From Rikenellaceae bacterium (GTDB lineage: Bacteria > Bacteroidota > Bacteroidia > Bacteroidales > Rikenellaceae), in assembly GCA_015060065.1 (NCBI GenBank), contig SUZF01000008.1:19316-83315 (forward strand): a stretch of DNA of 64,000 nt, in the 5' to 3' direction. The position numbers and the translations under genes are program-made. This document shows, piece by piece, positions 2,701 through 38,430 of this stretch; within the stretch, counting starts at the first letter, position 1, and every line of letters starts with the position of its first letter. The notes under the pieces were generated by a model. That model was not told where the DNA came from and made no database searches. It was given only the letters and a program-made list of their open reading frames with translations.

Positions 2701-4989
2701 CTATTTTTTACTTGAATTGATAATCTTCATACAATCTTCTGCCGTGAGGGTTTCAGGCTTCGCCCCCTTGGGCAGACGATAGTTCTTGCCCTTGTAAGCA
2801 ATGTAGGCTCCGTAGCGACCATTCTTAATCAAAATGTCGGGATTCTCGGCAAATGTCTTCAACGGAATGCTTGCAACCTTCACCTGCGAGAAGTGAGCAT
2901 CAAGCAACTCTACGGCACGGTCGTAGGAGATGGTGTAGGGGTCATCCCTCTTTTCGAGCGAGGCGAAGGTCTTGCCGTGGCGGACATAGGCTCCAAACTT
3001 GCCGATGCCGACAACCACATCCTCGCCCTCATACTTACCCAGATTTCGAGGCAGGGCGAAGAGTTCGAGAGCCTCCTCCAAGGTGAGAGCCTCGATAAGT
3101 TGTCCCTTTTTGAGCGAGGCAAAACGTGGCTTCTCGCCCGCAGCGCCCTCGATTTCAACCATCGGACCATAACGACCAATACGTGCCTTTACTGCAAAAC
3201 CAGTTGCGGGGTCGGTGCCCAGCACGCGCACCTGATTGTTCTTGTCTGCCTGCGTACCAATGGCACGCTCAACCATCTCGTGGAAGGGCTGATAGAAGTC
3301 GTCAATCATCTTGCTCCACGTGATATCGCCCTCGGCAATACGGTCGAACTCCTTCTCGACATCAGCCGTAAAGTGATATTCGAGAATCGGAGCAAACTGC
3401 GCTTCGAGATAGTCATTAACAATCATTCCGACGTCGGTCGGAGCCAGACGATTCTTCTCGGTGCCATAGTTCTCCGACAGACTCTTCTCGGAGAGTTTTT
3501 CGCCTTTGAGTATCAGTTGGGTGTAGGTACGTTTGCGCGACTCCTTGCTCTGCTTCTCGACATAACCGCGATTGATAATGGTCGTAATGGTCGGAGCGTA
3601 GGTCGAAGGACGGCCGATACCCAACTCTTCGAGTCGCTTGACAAGCAACGCCTCGTTATAGCGCATCGGAGGAACGGTAAAACGCTCGGTTGCCGTAATC
3701 TGCTCGACACCAACCATATCGCCCACCGACATATTTGGCAGAACACCACCTTGTTCGGTCTGCTCGTCATCGGTCGATTCGGAGTAGAGACGGAGAAATC
3801 CGTCAAAGCGAACCATCTCGCCCGTAGCGACAAACTGCGCTCCCGTAGAGGCTGTGATGGCAACATTCGTGCGGTCAATATCGGCAGCCACCATCTGCGA
3901 AGCCACCGTGCGTTTCCAAATCAGTTCGTACAGGCGTTTTTCGGCTGTCGTACCCTCAATGGTGCGACGGTCTATGTACGACGGACGTATTGCCTCGTGA
4001 GCCTCCTGCGCACCCTTGCTCTTGGTGGTATAGTTACGGGGATTTGAGTATTTCTCGCCAAAGATGGCAGAAATCTCCTCCTTGCACTTCGCGATGGCGA
4101 GATTCGAAAGATTGACCGAGTCGGTACGCATATAGGTAATCAAACCCTGCTCGTAGAGGTGCTGTGCCACCGACATCGTCTGCGATACAGACATTCCGAA
4201 CTTGCGGGCAGCCTCCTGTTGGAGCGTAGAGGTTGTGAAGGGTGGCGCCGGATAACGCTTCATCGGCTTCTCCTCGACACTCTCGATGCGGTAGGTTGCA
4301 CCCACACATCCACGGAGGAACGACTCTGCCTCCTCCTTGGTCGCGAACTTGTGCGGCACCTCTGCACGGAAGATGCTCTTCGCATCGTCAAGGGTATGGA
4401 ATTGCGCCGTTACGCGGTAAAATGGTGTAGATTGAAATCCTATAATTTCGCGCTCGCGCTCAACAATAAGTCTTACAGCCACGCTCTGCACACGTCCTGC
4501 CGAGAGAGCCGGTCGTACCTTCTTCCACAGCACGGGCGACAACTCGAAGCCCACCAATCGGTCCAACACACGACGTGCCTGCTGTGCATTCACAAGATTC
4601 ATATCGACCGTGCGGGGATTCTCGATTGCTGCAAGGATTGCATTCTTGGTAATTTCGTGGAACACAATACGCTTGGTGCGATCAACCGGAAGACCCAATA
4701 CCTCCGCCAGATGCCAAGCAATAGCCTCTCCCTCGCGGTCCTCATCGGATGCGAGCCAAACGGTCTTTGCCGACTTTGCCAGACGCGAAAGTTCATCCAC
4801 GACCTTACGCTTGTCGGCAGGAATTTCATAGATAGGTTGATAGGTGCCGTCGAGGTTGATTCCGAGGTCTTTTTTTGCCAAATCGCGGATATGTCCGAAA
4901 CTCGACTTGACCATATACTCCTTGCCGAGGAACTTCTCGATGGTCTTTGCCTTTGCCGGAGACTCGACGATTACTAAATTTTCTTGCAT
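2701..4989 (-). CDS. topA: DNA topoisomerase I
   Basis: LVIVESPAKAKTI, ASDEDREGEAIAWH, SAGRVQS, LITYMRTDS, GIGRPSTYA; C-terminal GKFGAY/GRYGAY repeats. Confidence 0.97.
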   Translation of the reverse strand: MQENLVIVESPAKAKTIEKFLGKEYMVKSSFGHIRDLAKKDLGINLDGTYQPIYEIPADKRKVVDELSRLAKSAKTVWLASDEDREGEAIAWHLAEVLGLPVDRTKRIVFHEITKNAILAAIENPRTVDMNLVNAQQARRVLDRLVGFELSPVLWKKVRPALSAGRVQSVAVRLIVEREREIIGFQSTPFYRVTAQFHTLDDAKSIFRAEVPHKFATKEEAESFLRGCVGATYRIESVEEKPMKRYPAPPFTTSTLQQEAARKFGMSVSQTMSVAQHLYEQGLITYMRTDSVNLSNLAIAKCKEEISAIFGEKYSNPRNYTTKSKGAQEAHEAIRPSYIDRRTIEGTTAEKRLYELIWKRTVASQMVAADIDRTNVAITASTGAQFVATGEMVRFDGFLRLYSESTDDEQTEQGGVLPNMSVGDMVGVEQITATERFTVPPMRYNEALLVKRLEELGIGRPSTYAPTITTIINRGYVEKQSKESRKRTYTQLILKGEKLSEKSLSENYGTEKNRLAPTDVGMIVNDYLEAQFAPILEYHFTADVEKEFDRIAEGDITWSKMIDDFYQPFHEMVERAIGTQADKNNQVRVLGTDPATGFAVKARIGRYGPMVEIEGAAGEKPRFASLKKGQLIEALTLEEALELFALPRNLGKYEGEDVVVGIGKFGAYVRHGKTFASLEKRDDPYTISYDRAVELLDAHFSQVKVASIPLKTFAENPDILIKNGRYGAYIAYKGKNYRLPKGAKPETLTAEDCMKIINSSKK

Positions 4990-20546: not shown

Positions 20547-20634
20547 GGAGAGGTGCAGGAGTGGTTGAACTGGCCCGCCTGGAAAGCGAGTAAACGTCAA
20601 AAACGTTTCAGGGGTTCGAATCCCCTTCTCTCCG
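20547..20634 (+). tRNA. tRNA-Ser(GGA), CCA not encoded
   Basis: Acceptor GGAGAGG/TCTCTCC, D-loop GAGTGG, anticodon loop CT-GGA-AA, long variable arm AAACGT-CAAAA-ACGTTT, T-loop GTTCGAATC. Confidence 0.96.
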
Positions 20635-29704: not shown

Positions 29705-29965
29705 GCCGGGTGTTTTCGGAGGGGGTGGCTTATGGGAAAGCGTTTATTCTGCGCTGAACATCTGCAAACCGTTTGAAAACCAAGCGCAACGAAGGGTGAA
29801 AAGGGAATCCGGTGCAAATCCGGAACAATGCCTGTTGCTGTGAGTCCGCCTCTGTTGCCGACAGTTTGGTCGAGTGTAAAATTTCAGAGGGTTGCTTATC
29901 GTAATCTATTGCCACTGGGAGACCGGGAAGGCGCGATAAGTGGACAAGTCAGAAGACCTGCCTGT
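29705..29965 (+). promoter_or_regulatory. Cobalamin (AdoCbl) riboswitch
   Basis: AAAAGGGAATCCGGTGCAAATCCGG, GCTGTGAG, GCCACTGGGAGACCGGGAAGG, AAGTCAGAAGACCTGCC; promoter TACCTTTG at 29673-29680; upstream of btu genes; 5' boundary approximate. Confidence 0.93.
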
Positions 29966-30154
29966 GTGATTAAGATTTTGGACCTGCAGGATTATGGGTT
30001 GGAATCAAAATACTTTACAACCATAACAGTCAGGTTTTTAGTGTGGGGCCGCCATGGCGCGAACACATTTTAGGGGCGGGTGGCATAATCCGCACCGCAA
30101 AGAGACAACCGGTGGCAGGTTTTATTGGTTATAGAGTTTTTGAGTCGAGCATAG

Positions 30155-30204
30155 GTTACCGTATTCCGAGGGTCAGCAAGGAGTACGGTAACTTTATTTT
30201 GTTT
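30155..30204 (+). terminator. Attenuator terminator of the B12 leader
   Basis: GTTACCGTATTCC/GGAGTACGGTAAC 13-bp stem (one G-U) then TTTATTTTGTTT. Confidence 0.75.
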
Positions 30205-30221
30205 AACTTCAAATTTATAGA

Positions 30222-30332
30222 ATGATGAACAAGAACTATTATCAACAGCCGACTGCAGAGGTGATTGAGTTCGCTGTAGAGTCGGGATTTGCACAATCAC
30301 AACAGAAACCCGCAGAGTGGGAGGATATGTAA
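30222..30332 (+). CDS. Small 36-aa peptide MMNKNYYQQPTAEVIEFAVESGFAQSQQKPAEWEDM
   Basis: AT-rich pre-ATG region, Y-x-x-P-x-x-E-V-I...GFA-x-S pattern, stop 17 bp before next ATG; below the ORF-track cutoff. Confidence 0.7.
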   Translation: MMNKNYYQQPTAEVIEFAVESGFAQSQQKPAEWEDM

Positions 30333-30349
30333 TTTAACCTATTCGTACT

Positions 30350-32011
30350 ATGAAAAAGATTTTTGCAATTATTGCTACATTGACACTGGTGGTGTCGTGT
30401 AGTACAGACGAGGGTCTTGCACCCAAAAATGGTTTAACGCTCACGGGTTACAACTCGATTGAGGCGCGTACAGCATTCGATACTCCCTCGGCAAGCAGCA
30501 TTCCTTTCAGTTGGAGTGCGGGCGACTACATTTGGTTGGGCTCGTTCAAAAGTAAGGCTATTGCAGAAGGTGGGAAAGCCGCGCAGTTCAAGTGGGACAA
30601 CGAGCCTTCGACCGCAGGCGACTACCACATATTTTATAATATGACTGGCAACCACAAGAATGCGGTGGTATTGACCGAACAGAGCGCAGATGGAAATCTT
30701 GGCAATGACGGAGATTTCGGTTATGCCGTTGCCGACGAGTTTAAGACATTCTATCTCGAACACAAAACCTCCTACATCTGGTTTGACACTACGAGCGCAG
30801 ATGTTACCGAGAAACTGACCACCATAACGGTCACTGCCGAGGAGGGTGTTAATCTTGCCGGTAAATGTGTGTTTGATTACGCCAATGACGCTTGGAGTTC
30901 GACCGTAAGCGAAGGCTCTAATCAAATCGTCTTGAATTTTGGCGAGGGCGTTCAGTTGGCGGAGGCAAACGATGGTATATTTGCCGCTATGGTGACACTC
31001 CCTGCGGCTATCGGTGGCAAGAATCTTACCATTACCTATACATTTGCCTCCGGTGCAACCTTTACCGAGGTTAAGACCCCGTCAAAAGACTTTGAGCCGG
31101 GCAAGGTTCGCCGTATTGCTACCTCCATCGCAGCGGCAAATCTCGTTCAGCCCGAGCCTGAACTGTCATACGAGTTGCGCGTGCTGACATTCGAGGATGA
31201 GGATGTGAAGTTTGATCCCATCGAGAATTTTGCCTTTGCATATCCCGACTATATGGGTGGCTATTGGTATGGTGACTACTTTACTCTTACCAAGTGGTCG
31301 GACTATATCCCTCGCGATGGTCAGTATGGCAATGGTCACAGATCTTACGAATGGTATGATGCCAATAACACCGAGTTGGAGTTTGTATGGCCCAGCGAGG
31401 AGAACGAAGCCTCTTGGTGGGGCATTGCCGGCCACGCAGGTATTTCGGACTATGTGGGAACTATGGATGACGTGAATAGTTTCCACGATGACAATATGCT
31501 CTATATGATTGACTTGCAGGCATATAATGTTAAGGGCGGTGCCAACGGCTCGAAGAATTTTTGCTCGCAGTATGGCTATCTCGACCCCGATGAGTATGCA
31601 ACGATATACTCGCCCGAGGGTGTTCTGCCCGGTATTCAGTTCCACGATGGCGTGGCAAGAGTTATCGATCATATGTATGTTACAAATACAACCTACACCT
31701 ATGGTGTGATTATTCACGGCGAGTGCGACTTCGGTGGTAGTTTCCAATTGACAGATGCGAGCACCTTCAAGATTGTGGCTTACGGATATGATTCATTCGA
31801 TGACACCGAGCCGACAATAACAGATTTCTATCTTTTGAATACAGGTCAACGCTTTGTGACCGATTGGACAAAGTGGGATCTGTCGGTTTTGGGTAAGGTT
31901 GTGCGCGTAGAGTTTAACCTCGTTGCCTGCGACAACGGATATGGTAAATATGGTCTGGTTATTCCTGCCTACTTTGCTTATGATGATGTAGCTGTTAGAT
32001 TTGAGAAATGA
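30350..32011 (+). CDS. Surface lipoprotein: fimbrillin-like N-terminal part plus C-terminal DUF4465-like domain (putative B12-binding)
   Basis: Lipobox VVS-C; EARTAF..FSWSAGDYI; C-terminal GGANGSKNF, YVTNTTY, FKIVAYG, VTDWTKWDLSVLGKV, IPAYFAYDD. Confidence 0.7.
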   Translation: MKKIFAIIATLTLVVSCSTDEGLAPKNGLTLTGYNSIEARTAFDTPSASSIPFSWSAGDYIWLGSFKSKAIAEGGKAAQFKWDNEPSTAGDYHIFYNMTGNHKNAVVLTEQSADGNLGNDGDFGYAVADEFKTFYLEHKTSYIWFDTTSADVTEKLTTITVTAEEGVNLAGKCVFDYANDAWSSTVSEGSNQIVLNFGEGVQLAEANDGIFAAMVTLPAAIGGKNLTITYTFASGATFTEVKTPSKDFEPGKVRRIATSIAAANLVQPEPELSYELRVLTFEDEDVKFDPIENFAFAYPDYMGGYWYGDYFTLTKWSDYIPRDGQYGNGHRSYEWYDANNTELEFVWPSEENEASWWGIAGHAGISDYVGTMDDVNSFHDDNMLYMIDLQAYNVKGGANGSKNFCSQYGYLDPDEYATIYSPEGVLPGIQFHDGVARVIDHMYVTNTTYTYGVIIHGECDFGGSFQLTDASTFKIVAYGYDSFDDTEPTITDFYLLNTGQRFVTDWTKWDLSVLGKVVRVEFNLVACDNGYGKYGLVIPAYFAYDDVAVRFEK

Positions 32012-32997
32012 GAAAGGTCTTTATAGATTTTTGTATTGTGGTTCTAGTAGCGATCTCTTCGTCTTGCAACATAGACGAAGAGATTGTGAAAGATTTGGAC
32101 CAAGGAGAGTTCTATCGAGCAAAAACTGCCGCATCGAAGCCCGATTGGAACAAGGTGTACGAATATACTCCTGCCCCCGGGCAATTTATCAACGAGTTGA
32201 AAACCGGTGGCTTTGATGGCACGCAGACAACCCCCGAAGCGGCTGTTGCATACGCCGAGGCGAGAATGTCGGAGGTGGACAAAAATGGTAATCCCTCGCC
32301 CAATTGGGTCTCGTTAGGTGGCTTTGGTGGCTATATCGTGGTGGGATTTGACCATAGTATCGACAATCTGGGCAGTTACGACTTCGCGATTTTGGGTAAT
32401 TCGTTCAAGGGCTCATCCGAGCCGGGTATTGTTTGGGTTATGCAGGACGAGAATGGTAATGGTCTGCCTGATGATACTTGGTACGAGTTGAAAGGCTCCG
32501 AGACCGGCAACCCCGAGACTATCCAAAACTATGCCGTAACCTACTATCGCCCCACCGAGCCTCAACAGCCCGTGCAGTGGAGCGACAATCAGGGTAATAG
32601 CGGACAGATAGACTACTTGAAGGCTTACCACAAGCAGGATTACTACTACCCATTATGGATTGAGGAGGATAGCTACACGCTGACCGGCACCTGTCTGAAA
32701 GCCCGCAACTACGATGCTTCGAATGGAAAGGGTACATATTGGGTGAATGATGAGTATGATTGGGGATATGCTGACAATTTTAGTTCCGAAGACCGACTGA
32801 CCGATGACAGCAATGTGGGCGCGGCTGCCAATGCCAACCACTTCAAAATCTCGAATGCGATAGATGTAAACGGCAAGCACAAGGAGTTGAAGTACATCGA
32901 TTTTATAAAGGTACAGGTCGGAGTCAATGCCAAAAGTGGCTGGTTGGGCGAGATTTCGACAGAAGTTTTTGGATTCAAGGACCTGCACTTTGAATAA
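32008..32997 (+). CDS. Cell-surface lipoprotein resembling the Bacteroides BtuH-type B12-binding domain
   Basis: Lipobox SSS-C; VYEYTPAPGQFIN, VSLGGFGGYIVVGFDHSI, SEPGIVWVMQDENGNGLPDDTWYELKGS, WGYADN, GEISTE. Confidence 0.7.
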   Translation: MRKVFIDFCIVVLVAISSSCNIDEEIVKDLDQGEFYRAKTAASKPDWNKVYEYTPAPGQFINELKTGGFDGTQTTPEAAVAYAEARMSEVDKNGNPSPNWVSLGGFGGYIVVGFDHSIDNLGSYDFAILGNSFKGSSEPGIVWVMQDENGNGLPDDTWYELKGSETGNPETIQNYAVTYYRPTEPQQPVQWSDNQGNSGQIDYLKAYHKQDYYYPLWIEEDSYTLTGTCLKARNYDASNGKGTYWVNDEYDWGYADNFSSEDRLTDDSNVGAAANANHFKISNAIDVNGKHKELKYIDFIKVQVGVNAKSGWLGEISTEVFGFKDLHFE

Positions 32998-33025: not shown

Positions 33026-34105
33026 ATGCTGATGAGAGCCTTTGTCCGAAATATTGAGTTTGTAGTGGTGCTTCTGTTGGCTGTCGCGCTCGGTGGCTGT
33101 ATGAAGTGGGACTATCTCTACACCGAGGAGTTCAATGAGCGAGGCAGGGGTCTTTTCTGCCTTAATGAGGGTAATTTTCAGTATGGCAACGCATCACTAT
33201 CGCACTACAACCCTGCAACACATAAGGTTGAAAACGAGGTGTTCGCCCGCGCCAACGGTATGAAGTTGGGCGATGTGGCGCAGTCGATGACCATCCGCAA
33301 CGGTATAGGCTGGGTCGTAGTAAACAACTCGCACGTCGTCTTTGCCATCGACATCAATACATTCAAGGAGGTAGGACGTATCACGAACCTTACCTCTCCG
33401 CGATATATCCACTTTCTCTCGGACGAGAAAGCTTACGTCACCCAAATCTGGGATAACCGAATCTTTATCGTAAACCCCAAACGTTACGAGATTACGGGGT
33501 ATATCGAAGTACCGAATATGACTATGGAGTCCGGCTCTACGGAGCAGATGGTGCAGGTGGGAGATTTCGTATATGTGAATTGTTGGTCGTATCAAAACCG
33601 AATACTCAAGATTGACACCCGAACAGACAAGGTGGTCGATGAACTCATAGTGGGTATTCAGCCCACATCGCTTGCGCTGGATTGCAACGATAAGTTATGG
33701 ACCGTAACTGATGGTGGTTATGAAGGCTCTCCATACGGATATGAAGCGCCTTCTCTCTATCGCATTGATGCCGAAACCTTCACCATCGAAAAGCAGTTTA
33801 GATTCAAATTTGGCGACTGGCCCTCGGAGGTGCAACTCAACGGTGCGAAAGATAAGATTTATTGGCTCAACGATGATGTTTGGGAGATGAGCGTAACAGC
33901 CGACTACCTGCCTGCCGAGCCGTTCCTACCGTACAAAGATACTATCTACTATGGTCTTACAATCGACCCTCAATCGGGCGATGTCTATATTGCCGATGCG
34001 ATAGATTATGTGCAGCAAGGAATGATTTATCGCTACTCGAAAGAGCGTGAGTTGCTCGATAGTTTTTATGTGGGAATCATCCCCGGTGCGTTTTGTTGGA
34101 AATAG
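33026..34105 (+). CDS. btuG: B12-binding beta-propeller surface lipoprotein (YncE/DUF5074-like)
   Basis: Lipobox LGG-C; NEGNFQYGNASLSHY, LGDVAQSM, SPRYI, YGLTIDP, DAIDYVQQG, VGIIPGAFCW; directly upstream of the TBDT. Confidence 0.85.
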   Translation: MLMRAFVRNIEFVVVLLLAVALGGCMKWDYLYTEEFNERGRGLFCLNEGNFQYGNASLSHYNPATHKVENEVFARANGMKLGDVAQSMTIRNGIGWVVVNNSHVVFAIDINTFKEVGRITNLTSPRYIHFLSDEKAYVTQIWDNRIFIVNPKRYEITGYIEVPNMTMESGSTEQMVQVGDFVYVNCWSYQNRILKIDTRTDKVVDELIVGIQPTSLALDCNDKLWTVTDGGYEGSPYGYEAPSLYRIDAETFTIEKQFRFKFGDWPSEVQLNGAKDKIYWLNDDVWEMSVTADYLPAEPFLPYKDTIYYGLTIDPQSGDVYIADAIDYVQQGMIYRYSKERELLDSFYVGIIPGAFCWK

Positions 34106-34116
34106 AAGAGAAGAGT

Positions 34117-36168
34117 ATGAAAAGAGTTATAATAGGCATACTGCTCTCGATTATTCCGCTCGGATTGTCCGCACAAACCGAGCAGGTGTGGCATAAGCGC
34201 ACGCACGACATCCCCGAAATCTCGGTCTATGGCTCACGCCCGATGAAAGATATTGGCACACAACAGACCAAAATCGACACCACGGCTCTCAAAGAGAACA
34301 TCTCGCTTTCGATGGCCGATGTGCTGACCTTCAACTCCTCGATATTTGTCAAGAGTTATGGTCGTGCAACCCTATCGACTGTGGCATTTCGAGGCACTTC
34401 GCCTTCACACACGCAGGTAACATGGAATGGAATGCGCATCAATAACCCGATGCTCGGAATGACCGACTTCTCGATGATTCCATCCTACTTTATCGACGAT
34501 GCCTCATTGCTGCACGGCACATCCTCGGTAAATGATACGGGTGGTGGTTTGGGTGGAGCAGTTCGCCTCTCGACCAAGCCTGCCGAAGCGCGAGGTTTCG
34601 GCTTGCAGTTTGTGCAGGGTGTCGGCTCTTTCACAACTATCGACGACTTCCTGCGCCTCACGTGGGGTAACGAGCGGTGGCAGACATCAACCCGCGTGGT
34701 CTTCTCAACCTCGAAGAACGACTACAAATATCGCAACCGCGACAAGAAGGAGAATATCTACGACGAGCAGATGAACATCGTCGGTCAATACTACCCCATA
34801 GAGCGCAATCGCAGCGGAGCCTTCCGTGACCTGCACCTCCTGCAAGAGGTCTATTACAATACCGGCAAGGGCGACCGCCTCGGACTGAATGCGTGGTACA
34901 TAGCCTCCAATCGCGAACTGCCGATGCTCACGACCGACTACGGCAATGCTGCCGCCTTCGATAATCGCCAGCGCGAGCAAACATTCCGAGGAGTACTCTC
35001 ATGGGACCACCTGCGACCAAATTGGAAGGTGGGAGCCAAGGCCGGATATGTTTATACGTGGATGGCATACGACTACAAGCGCGATGTCGGCAATGGGGTA
35101 ATGCATGCCATGACCCGCTCGCGAAGCCTTGTGAATACAATCTATGCGCAAGCCGAAGGCGAGTACTACATCGGCAAAAAGTGGCTCTTTACGGCAAATC
35201 TGTCGGCACACCAGCATTTAGTCGAGAGCCGCGACAAAAACATCATACGCCAGGACGGCAACAAGGCTATTGTCGGCTACCACTCCGGACGTTTTGAACT
35301 TTCGGGGTCGGTATCGGCGAAGTGGCGACCCATCGACCGTCTGGGCATATCGGCAGTGTTGCGCGAGGAGTTGTTCGGCAACAAATGGACACCCATCATT
35401 CCGGCTCTCTTTATCGATGGGGTAATCTCTCAAAAGGGCAACATCACAGCCAAAGCCTCCGTGTCGCGCAACTTCCGCTTTCCAACCCTCAACGACCTCT
35501 ATTTCCTGCCGGGTGGAAATCCCGACCTGCGCCCCGAAAGCGGCTGGACATACGATGCGGGCATCTCGTTTACCATAGGCAAAAAGGGAGTCTATTCGTT
35601 GAGCGGCTCGGCGACGTGGTTTGACTCACATATCAAGGATTGGATTATCTGGCTACCCACCGCCAAAGGCTTCTTCTCGCCCGAAAACATCAAGGATGTA
35701 CACGCCTACGGAGTGGAGTTACAGGCGGCTCTCTCGGTGGCTCTCGCCCCAAAGTGGCAATTAGACCTCAACGGAAACTTTTCGTGGACACCCTCTATCA
35801 ACGAGGGCGAGCCGCGCTCGGCAGCCGACCGCTCGGTAGGCAAACAATTGCCATACGTTCCGGAGTTCTCCTCCTCGGTCACAGGGCGGTTGTCGTGGCG
35901 CAGATGGTCACTCCTCTACAAGTGGTGCTGGTACAGCGAGCGATTCACGATGTCGAGCAACGACCTCTCGCTATCGGGCAAACTGCCCGAATACTTTATG
36001 AGCAACATCTCGCTCGAAAAGGTGCTGGTATTCAATTGGGCAGACCTCTCGCTCAAAGGAACGATAAACAACCTCTTCAACGAGGAGTATCTCACGGTAC
36101 TCTCGCGCCCGATGCCCGGCATAAACTTCGAAATCTTCGTGGGCATTACGCCCAAGTGGGGCAAATAA
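34117..36168 (+). CDS. btuB: TonB-dependent cobalamin receptor
   Basis: Plug FVKSYGRATLSTVAFRGTSPSHTQVTWNGMRIN; barrel FRFPTLNDLYF.PGGNPDL.PE; NNLFNEEY..RPMPG; riboswitch-controlled. Confidence 0.9.
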   Translation: MKRVIIGILLSIIPLGLSAQTEQVWHKRTHDIPEISVYGSRPMKDIGTQQTKIDTTALKENISLSMADVLTFNSSIFVKSYGRATLSTVAFRGTSPSHTQVTWNGMRINNPMLGMTDFSMIPSYFIDDASLLHGTSSVNDTGGGLGGAVRLSTKPAEARGFGLQFVQGVGSFTTIDDFLRLTWGNERWQTSTRVVFSTSKNDYKYRNRDKKENIYDEQMNIVGQYYPIERNRSGAFRDLHLLQEVYYNTGKGDRLGLNAWYIASNRELPMLTTDYGNAAAFDNRQREQTFRGVLSWDHLRPNWKVGAKAGYVYTWMAYDYKRDVGNGVMHAMTRSRSLVNTIYAQAEGEYYIGKKWLFTANLSAHQHLVESRDKNIIRQDGNKAIVGYHSGRFELSGSVSAKWRPIDRLGISAVLREELFGNKWTPIIPALFIDGVISQKGNITAKASVSRNFRFPTLNDLYFLPGGNPDLRPESGWTYDAGISFTIGKKGVYSLSGSATWFDSHIKDWIIWLPTAKGFFSPENIKDVHAYGVELQAALSVALAPKWQLDLNGNFSWTPSINEGEPRSAADRSVGKQLPYVPEFSSSVTGRLSWRRWSLLYKWCWYSERFTMSSNDLSLSGKLPEYFMSNISLEKVLVFNWADLSLKGTINNLFNEEYLTVLSRPMPGINFEIFVGITPKWGK

Positions 36169-38430
<2,262 letters not shown>

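Follow-up and report, generated by a model that had tools for sequence, protein, structure and literature searches.

Type V pili of the FimA/Mfa1 kind are reportedly assembled by protease-mediated strand exchange. In the known type V pili, the donor strand is provided by the next pilin subunit and not by a separate small gene. Cobamide capture has been described in Bacteroides thetaiotaomicron, where BtuJ1 and BtuJ2 act together with a BtuB-BtuG-BtuH relay (PMC13616437, PMC13398666, PMC8941943). The recent papers on cobamide capture in Bacteroides list BtuB, G, H, J, K and L and do not list a peptide. The lasso-peptide clusters of paeninodin and pseudomycoidin encode a precursor (A), a PqqD protein (B1), B2, C, an ABC transporter (D), an HPr-kinase homologue (K) and a nucleotidyltransferase (N) (PMC8498205). 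In these clusters PqqD/B1 binds the leader, the HPr-kinase homologue phosphorylates a Ser, the nucleotidyltransferase adds a hexose and the ABC transporter carries out export (PMC8498205).

The operon described here lies in a 64-kb stretch of DNA from an Alistipes-like gut bacterium, the whole of which is called the window. As in the B. thetaiotaomicron Btu relay, a cobalamin riboswitch is followed by genes for a DUF4465 B12 binder, BtuH, BtuG and BtuB. Unlike in B. thetaiotaomicron, the DUF4465 domain of the window is fused to a predicted type V pilin-like N-terminal part of roughly 300 residues, and a gene for a small peptide stands before it. The features are as follows:

29745..29979, + strand, cobalamin riboswitch aptamer (Rfam RF00174, 61 bits, E 1.2e-12)
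30153..30204, + strand, expression-platform terminator (15-bp-stem hairpin 30153-30194, then TTTATTTTGTTT)
30222-30332, + strand, peptide ORF, ATGATGAAC...GATATGTAA, product MMNKNYYQQPTAEVIEFAVESGFAQSQQKPAEWEDM
30222..30299, + strand, leader part of the peptide, residues 1-26, MMNKNYYQQPTAEVIEFAVESGFAQS
30300..30332, + strand, tail part of the peptide (QQKPAEWEDM, 10 residues) and stop codon
30350..32011, + strand, 553-aa surface-type lipoprotein with a predicted type V pilin-like N-terminal part and a C-terminal DUF4465 domain
32008..32997, + strand, BtuH-like B12-binding surface protein (phmmer against PDB 7BIZ, BtuH2)
33026..34105, + strand, BtuG beta-propeller surface lipoprotein (phmmer against PDB; Pfam DUF5074)
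34093..36168, + strand, BtuB-like TonB-dependent transporter (Plug and TonB_dep_Rec_b-barrel domains)

A small gene in a cobalamin-riboswitch operon

The RF00174 match spans the full model (1-189; gathering score 31.5), and of 30 related loci that were scanned, 29 have this riboswitch upstream in the same orientation. The terminator hairpin folds at -27.8 kcal/mol with a z-score of -5.06, none of 200 shuffled sequences was as stable, and it is almost invariant among close relatives. A simple terminator scan missed this hairpin because its loop is above the limit of that scan. The locus thus has the features of a cobalamin-riboswitch Btu locus, namely a same-strand RF00174, a terminator before the first cistron and genes for B12 capture and transport downstream.

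The lipoprotein encoded after the peptide has the lipobox LVVSC, followed by STDE, and its C-terminal domain matches Pfam DUF4465 with an E-value of 1.1e-28. Foldseek searches with its AlphaFold2 model (pLDDT 82.6) matched the C-terminus to BtuJ2 (9i2l, E 2.5e-11) and BtuJ1 (9fct/9qpm), and the N-terminus to fimbrial or 'cell adhesion' proteins (3t2l, 3ufi, 4k4k, 4eps and 3r4r, and Mfa4 5dhm), the fimbrial-protein matches having a probability of 1.00. Among its homologues Cys17 and Thr41 are invariant and Arg40 is nearly so, Arg40-Thr41 lying after the first strand. With its lipobox, its modelled FimA/Mfa-type fold and the Arg after the first strand, the N-terminal part resembles a type V pilin, and on the model the protein joins a type V pilin-like domain to a B12 binder of the BtuJ type. 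The BtuH-like protein aligned to chain residues 210-491 of 7BIZ (E 4.8e-111) and had no match in Pfam or NCBIfam. BtuG matched PDB entries 8bmx, 8bn0 and 8p97 with E-values of 1e-183 to 1e-186 (2e-186 for 8bmx), and the BtuB-like transporter gave sub-threshold matches to TonB-B12 models. The joint presence of the DUF4465/BtuJ fold, BtuH, BtuG and a TonB-dependent transporter identifies the operon as a predicted Bacteroidota cobamide-capture locus.

The peptide ORF has 36 codons (ATG ATG AAC ... GAT ATG TAA) with its stop codon at 30330-30332, and a gap of 17 nt separates this stop from the ATG of the lipoprotein at 30350. An earlier note on this DNA had placed the ORF at these coordinates, directly after the attenuator and 17 nt before the lipoprotein start, and all of these positions were correct. 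Its claim that an unannotated 36-aa peptide is the first gene behind the B12 riboswitch of the window was likewise confirmed by the coordinates, the aptamer and the conservation of the ORF. The ORF cannot reach further upstream, since a TAA stands in frame at 30204-30206. The start may be either 30222 or 30225, and the orthologues have a single Met. In an alignment of 56 distinct orthologues, the leader shows the family motif Y-x-x-P-x-x-E-V-I-E-x-x-V-E-x-G-F-A-x-S. The tail is acidic and specific to the subfamily, with a Trp four residues from its end. The peptide as a whole has six acidic and two basic residues and a net charge of -4. The type of fragment named as an LC-MS/MS target for this peptide is QSQQKPAEWEDM.

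Inspection of the peptide sequence and of its upstream in-frame stop revealed neither a hydrophobic run nor an N-terminal Sec signal sequence, and many orthologues likewise have no possible upstream extension. When modelled alone with AlphaFold2, the peptide was an extended chain with zero secondary structure, which fits a peptide that would fold only on binding and also fits binding by strand addition. Pfam and NCBIfam contained no family for the peptide or for nine of its relatives, even at an E-value of 10, and a search of plasmids found no similar DNA.

Since the surrounding 13 kb contain 152 ORFs of at least 30 aa, an ORF of 36 codons is by itself within chance, and its significance comes from conservation. 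The peptide, searched with five upstream codons added to the query, is common to five protein clusters at 90% identity. Over the last 18 codons, the DNA of these five closest clusters differs by six substitutions, all six at third positions and all six synonymous; their tails are identical and the N-terminal half of the ORF shows conservative replacements. Column entropies at codon positions 1, 2 and 3 were 1.01, 0.79 and 1.53, the third position being the most variable. The dN/dS comparison across orthologues that the earlier note had proposed gave a median of 0.37, with values below 1 in 98.5% of the 202 pairs with unsaturated dS. Among the 56 distinct orthologues, Y, P, E, G-F, S and W are invariant or nearly so, and changes in length preserve the frame. 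If the ORF were a chance overlap with conserved riboswitch-platform RNA, its existence would be explained by the abundance of short ORFs and its apparent conservation by the adjoining hairpin, which is highly conserved at the nucleotide level. The codon-periodic substitutions, the low dN/dS and the frame-keeping length changes argue against this, as does an amino-acid motif that survives DNA divergence even where there is no riboswitch. A chance ORF is vanishingly improbable, and the codon-level evidence excludes a non-coding explanation. Judged by this pattern of substitution, the ORF is a real gene under purifying selection. One contig of low depth, from a metatranscriptome that may contain DNA, covers 30150-30349 and is a weak sign that the peptide region is transcribed. 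A search for an isolate-genome run that contains the window found none, the runs with it being metagenomes only.

Pairing with pilin-like lipoproteins across the family

To follow the peptide across relatives, 79 genomic loci were fetched, each encoding a relative of the 553-aa lipoprotein; nearly all are from Alistipes, Rikenellaceae or other Bacteroidales MAGs. A full-length homologue of the lipoprotein is encoded in 57 of them, and the other 22 share only the DUF4465 domain. The peptide HMM matched before 56 of the 57 full-length homologues, down to a protein identity of 33%, and the remaining locus (L066) has a divergent copy, so that the tally of downstream genes proposed in the earlier note places a peptide before 57/57 full-length homologues. 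The distance from peptide to homologue is 11-126 nt, lying mostly within 11-59 nt and reaching 126 nt in a single locus. The peptide is missing from all 22 loci with DUF4465 alone, and about 640 kb of BtuJ-type loci contained no extra peptides outside the expected position. The tails of the BtuJ-linked subfamily have the consensus QQ(E/K)P(S/A)xWEDM, which is kept across BtuJ-type lipoproteins that have diverged to 33-45% identity. In several B12-linked peptides, 3-21 extra residues follow WEDM or WEEM; W-E-D-M-stop is kept in most members of this subfamily.

Because another gene separates the riboswitch from the peptide in eight related loci, the peptide appears to be tied to the lipoprotein gene and not to the riboswitch. 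The 170-aa ORF that stands between riboswitch and peptide in these eight relatives was considered as a hidden recognition protein and rejected; it has no Pfam match, and hhalign against a PqqD alignment gave a probability of 3.6%. Family members outside any B12 context, together with DUF4465 genes that have no pilin-like part and no peptide, narrow the association further. By gene neighbourhood, it is the pilin-like domain at the N-terminus of the lipoprotein that the peptide goes with, and not B12 or the riboswitch. The link to B12 uptake made in the earlier note thus stands for the position of the peptide as first cistron under the riboswitch but does not extend to the family, in which linkage follows the pilin-like domain. 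The constant pairing and the conservation of the tail across diverged BtuJ-type proteins argue that an exported product would work with the lipoprotein.

A profile search of 1.84 billion representative proteins found 44 representatives at E<=1e-3. A broader profile gathered 512 protein clusters, all unnamed or 'hypothetical'. The pattern Y-x-x-P-x-x-E-V-I...G-F-A-x-S, which the earlier note had given, does therefore describe a large family. Many matches share only the N-terminal 25 residues with the B12-linked type, which ends ...QQEPSPWEDM, and have different tails. The leader of the family reads M-x-K-x-x-Y-x-x-P-x-V-E-V-I-E-V-x-V-E-x-G-F-A-x-S/T, with a Y-x-x-P-x-L/V/I motif visible in every member. 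At the junction of leader and tail, G is conserved in 98%, F in 93%, A in 91% and S/T in 100% (226/226) of 226 distinct members, and about 9% of them have Q, E, T, L or I in place of the A at -1. The tails are 6-49 aa long (median 12) and variable in sequence; 97% are acidic, 91% have an aromatic residue within the last six and Cys is almost absent. A conserved N-terminal leader followed by a variable C-terminal core, as in the precursors of RiPPs, is thus the layout of these 226 members. Judged by this layout, the peptide of the window is a member of a large unnamed Bacteroidales family of leader-plus-tail peptides.

Wherever the gene after a family peptide could be read, it encodes a lipoprotein of 275-1089 aa. 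All such lipoproteins have a fimbrillin-type N-terminus (...T/S-R-x...W..GD) except an LRR-type one (L094). Outside any B12 context, the paired lipoproteins have Mfa_like_1, LRR_5 or F5/8-C domains or no Pfam domain. The expectation in the earlier note that such peptides precede fimbrillin-like genes is borne out by these fimbrillin/Mfa-like partners. Like type V pilins, the partner lipoproteins combine a lipobox with a predicted pilin fold in which an Arg is conserved after the first strand, and a strand-accepting groove of the type V pilin kind would offer a site for a peptide ligand. Unlike in type V pili, the candidate donor here is encoded by a separate small gene. Two members' N-termini matched leader models below the cut-off, one for paeninodin lasso peptides (NF033524, E 0.03) and one for the StsA sactipeptide (NF045558, E 0.0016), in line with the resemblance to RiPP leaders that had been noted earlier. 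Leaders of the paeninodin type and of StsA are of the type bound by PqqD-like recognition elements.

A PqqD-linked gene set in other genomes

On Alistipes contigs (L096/L097), two peptide-lipoprotein pairs adjoin genes for a PqqD protein, an ABC exporter, a kinase-like and a peptidase-like protein. The PqqD protein has 88 aa (Pfam E 4e-13), a P-loop protein of 285 aa weakly matches HprK-related kinase A, and the peptidase-like protein of 147 aa matches signal peptidase I / S24. A metagenome scan seeded with PqqD-like proteins alone yielded 80 loci (709 kb), the first of them from Alistipes or another Rikenellaceae and the commonest from Phocaeicola massiliensis, in which the peptide is annotated as 'hypothetical protein' (HMPREF1534_01856). 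An HMM built from 56 B12-linked peptides only found 38 peptides in 37 of these 80 loci, all on the PqqD strand and all with E<1e-5. Reversed sequences searched as a control gave no matches. Where at least 4.5 kb upstream of PqqD was available, the peptide was present in 18 of 20 loci.

The conserved gene order is peptide, pilin-like lipoprotein, PqqD, PF14907, ABC exporter, kinase-like and S26-like. The PF14907 nucleotidyltransferase matches NTP_transf_5 with an E-value of 2e-41, and the NTP_transf_5, ABC, kinase-like and S26-like genes follow in 26-29 of the 31 loci with enough flank. The kinase-like protein contains the motif GESGTGKST...LLNDD, and the peptidase-like protein contains GxSMxP, HR and GDG and matches TIGR02228 at E 7e-7 to 8e-5; for both proteins the assignment combines such motifs with scores below threshold. 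Neither protein found a usable match in PDB, whether a single sequence or a profile served as the query. Taken together, gene content and gene order show a family-level linkage of the peptide to the PqqD gene set.

This linkage is rarely local in the B12-linked loci. A component of the machinery lies within the 4-kb flank in three of the 57, namely PqqD homologues (48-50% identity) about 0.9 kb upstream of the operon in two (L048, L050) and a peptidase homologue (60% identity) 3.4 kb upstream in the third (L035). Within the 64-kb window, tblastn with all six cluster proteins found no PqqD, nucleotidyltransferase, kinase-like, peptidase-like or matching ABC gene. The statement of the earlier note that no modifying enzyme is nearby therefore holds for the window but not for the family, which has a dedicated set of PqqD, nucleotidyltransferase, ABC, kinase-like and peptidase genes elsewhere.

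The precursors and their gene set share several features with the paeninodin and pseudomycoidin systems. The precursor is short, its leader starts M-K-K-x-Y-x-x-P-x-[LVI]-E-V, and it is accompanied by a stand-alone PqqD, a PF14907-type nucleotidyltransferase, a P-loop HprK-like protein and a half-size ABC exporter. Unlike those systems, the peptide-family loci that were read have neither the cyclase C nor B2 and instead have an S26/S24-like Ser-His peptidase. Their tails do not end in Ser, and every precursor has a pilin-like lipoprotein as its partner. They also differ in occurring in Bacteroidales and in that many precursors are far from the machinery. In three loci (L096, L097 and L125), where the genes from PqqD to the peptidase are all accounted for, the Asn-synthetase-like C protein that serves as lasso cyclase is absent. 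The transglutaminase-like B2 leader peptidase is absent from the loci read, the S26/S24-like gene being the sole peptidase-like gene. A lasso peptide was rejected as an identity for the peptide, there being no cyclase and no B2 peptidase.

Proposed processing in trans and alternative roles of the peptide

We see about an even chance that the peptide is a RiPP-like precursor that is processed in trans, exported and put to work with its co-encoded lipoprotein. Under B12 scarcity, transcription would run past the riboswitch terminator, and synthesis of the peptide would accompany that of the pilin-like BtuJ, BtuH, BtuG and BtuB. In the cytoplasm, a stand-alone PqqD-type protein encoded elsewhere in the genome would take up the Y-x-x-P-x-V-E-V-I-E... 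leader of the peptide as an additional beta-strand. The invariant Ser/Thr at the junction of leader and tail may receive modifications from the HprK-like kinase and the PF14907 nucleotidyltransferase. The S26-like peptidase would then cut off the leader near G-F-A, and the half-size ABC exporter would carry the tail over the inner membrane. In the periplasm or on the surface, the tail would associate with the co-encoded pilin-like lipoprotein. Precursors far from the machinery, including that of the window, would be served in trans. PqqD binding, modification, the cleavage site, export, use of the machinery in trans and interaction with the lipoprotein are all steps that we infer. Export by an ABC transporter to the periplasm, which the lipoprotein must also cross, would remove the topological objection to a peptide without a signal sequence. 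G-F-A as the cleavage site is a guess: the -3/-1 rule of signal peptidases would fit about 91% of members, and the replacement of A at -1 in the remainder makes the site uncertain. RiPP logic itself leaves the pairing of each peptide with a lipoprotein unexplained.

The pairing can also be read as the action of an unprocessed peptide, whose full-length form would attach to the pilin-like domain or to the precursor of the lipoprotein and serve there as donor beta-strand or dedicated chaperone; the strand donor is an idea of the earlier note. The tight association with pilin-like lipoproteins in every context examined is consistent with this, and so are the V/I/E-rich leader, modelled to have no fold of its own, the predicted type V pilin fold of the lipoprotein with its nearly invariant Arg40-Thr41 after the first strand, and the lack of processing genes near most pairs, that of the window included. 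However, type V pilin strand exchange occurs outside the inner membrane, and a peptide that has no signal sequence and cannot be extended would, unaided, stay in the cytoplasm. Nor would a strand donor or chaperone explain why the family is so strongly linked to an exporter, a peptidase and a recognition protein of the PqqD type. We consider this explanation unlikely, and the support is better for a precursor of leader and core that is handled in trans than for a beta-strand donor left unprocessed, because the family has its own dedicated gene set for such handling elsewhere. The same linkage would be needless for a purely cis-acting leader peptide, in which ribosome stalling at P-x-x-W-E-D-M-stop might control translation of the lipoprotein or Rho termination. 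As with TnaC and SpeFL, an ORF of roughly 35 codons lies between a terminator and a regulated gene and has a conserved C-terminus next to its stop. Such a role would suit an ORF that follows the terminator directly, that in most of the 57 loci ends 11-59 nt ahead of the next start, whose median length of 37 aa fits within the exit tunnel and whose stop-adjacent C-terminus is strongly conserved in the B12-linked subfamily. Unlike in TnaC and SpeFL, what is conserved family-wide is the N-terminal leader, while the tails vary in length and sequence and genes for recognition, a peptidase and export are linked to the family; even among B12-linked members, several extend 3-21 residues beyond WEDM/WEEM. 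A cis-acting role is distinctly unlikely.

The RiPP-like gene set with its ABC exporter, together with tails that differ between paralogues and species, could instead point to a peptide that is exported and acts on other cells, as a signal or as an antagonist. Its gene would then do no more than share a transcript with that of the lipoprotein, and the lipoprotein might serve as its receptor, as an immunity factor or as a display factor. Most known antimicrobial peptides are unlike these tails, which are short, acidic and nearly Cys-free. The constancy of the B12-linked tail across lipoproteins diverged to 33-45% identity also speaks against this explanation and suggests a conserved intracellular or self partner. 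We regard action on other cells as highly unlikely. Processing in trans, our preferred explanation, may be taken one step further to a proposal that is doubtful at present. Many Bacteroidales surface lipoproteins would be two-gene modules, in which a shared PqqD-type chaperone recognises the peptide, its invariant Ser/Thr is decorated, and it is trimmed and exported to become a stoichiometric ligand of the adjacent pilin-like domain, for example as a groove-filling strand or a cap. Here the peptide would be a required subunit of the BtuJ-type protein that is induced by B12 starvation.

Neither a peptide nor a small ORF is mentioned in the papers searched on BtuH, BtuJ and DUF4465 or in a review from September 2026 that covers the cobamide relay. 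A survey of Bacteroidales RiPP clusters does not describe the PqqD/PF14907/ABC/HprK-like/S26-like set, and the only literature found on PF14907, or on PqqD combined with an HPr kinase and a nucleotidyltransferase, concerned lasso peptides. The peptide family, its link to pilin-like lipoproteins and its link to the B12 operon appear to be undescribed in the literature searched. As for the suggestion that the peptide would be an undescribed part of Bacteroidota B12 uptake, none of the searched papers about B12 uptake in Bacteroides mentions it. On the gene content, we rate the system as putative RRE-dependent ribosomal peptide processing with an unusual partner and in an unusual regulatory context.

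For B12 uptake, a conserved first cistron found with every pilin-like BtuJ would be a missing component or regulator of the relay. The PqqD/PF14907/ABC/HprK-like/S26-like set, which has no class-defining cyclase, has the look of a peptide-processing pathway that is as yet uncharacterised but whose substrates can now be named; the precursors run into the hundreds and occur in frequent inhabitants of the human gut such as Phocaeicola massiliensis. Annotation routinely passes over the gene or labels it 'hypothetical', and pipelines would gain from a family model. Pilin-like 'cell adhesion' lipoproteins are very numerous in Bacteroidota and mostly of unknown function, and a dedicated partner peptide provides a concrete handle on them. 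If the two-gene-module proposal is true, the BtuJ-type protein that captures B12 would have in the peptide a required subunit that has so far gone unrecognised.

An additional ORF in related loci

At eight related loci, which carry homologues of the peptide-associated BtuJ-type lipoprotein, a conserved ORF of 166-180 aa separates the peptide gene from the cobalamin riboswitch.

Intervening ORFs (locus:coordinates)
L015:3290-3832
L017:3303-3821
L018:3327-3839
L020:3341-3841
L034:3345-3845
L036:3339-3854
L043:3280-3816
L048:~3338-3838

The ORF carries the motif NLWKFFKALRAQANP.YCLL, lacks a signal peptide and matches no Pfam family, and no counterpart is present in the window. Its identity as a PqqD-like protein was considered and rejected (hhalign probability 3.6%).

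Stand-alone PqqD-like genes were located near the B12-linked operons of two lipoprotein-homologue loci, L048 and L050.
L048:2516-2806, minus strand, PqqD-like gene
L050:2531-2794, minus strand, PqqD-like gene
Their products are 48-50% identical to the PqqD recognition protein of the gene sets that lie beside peptide-lipoprotein pairs elsewhere. Both genes are upstream of, and divergent from, the riboswitch-controlled peptide-BtuJ operon and neighbour a 78-aa ORF, with no adjoining ABC, kinase or peptidase genes.

Other features of the window

32008-32997, BtuH homologue, 329 aa (PDB 7BIZ match, E 4.8e-111)
36187-38430, same strand as the BtuB-like transporter, GH97 glycoside hydrolase gene
20547-20634, tRNA match, 88 nt (RF00005, 43.8 bits)

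The BtuH homologue had no Pfam or NCBIfam match; no model for the BtuH-type B12-binding domain seems to exist in the curated libraries. The GH97 gene is an odd passenger closing the B12 capture operon, and begins after a 19-nt gap 3' of the transporter gene. The length of the tRNA match suggests a long variable arm.

Many high-depth contigs from gut metatranscriptomes matched the conserved aptamer core (29796-29845) and diverged on either side of it, with apparent 'joints' omitting 98-124 nt. These look like cross-matches to other B12 riboswitch loci rather than processing of the window's RNA.

Other occurrences of the peptide family

The 90% cluster of the Phocaeicola massiliensis peptide includes one member, DAI63476.1, whose database entry reads 'MAG TPA: hypothetical protein [Caudoviricetes sp.]'. 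It probably reflects either a bacterial contig that was binned wrongly or a copy next to a prophage. At L098:3842-16365, a locus of the wider family, three pairs of a peptide and a ~1000-aa protein (39+980, 40+1015 and 37+951 aa) alternate in orientation and surround a large serine recombinase gene (Resolvase/Recombinase/Zn_ribbon_recom), a layout that could represent a phase-variable or mobile arrangement.
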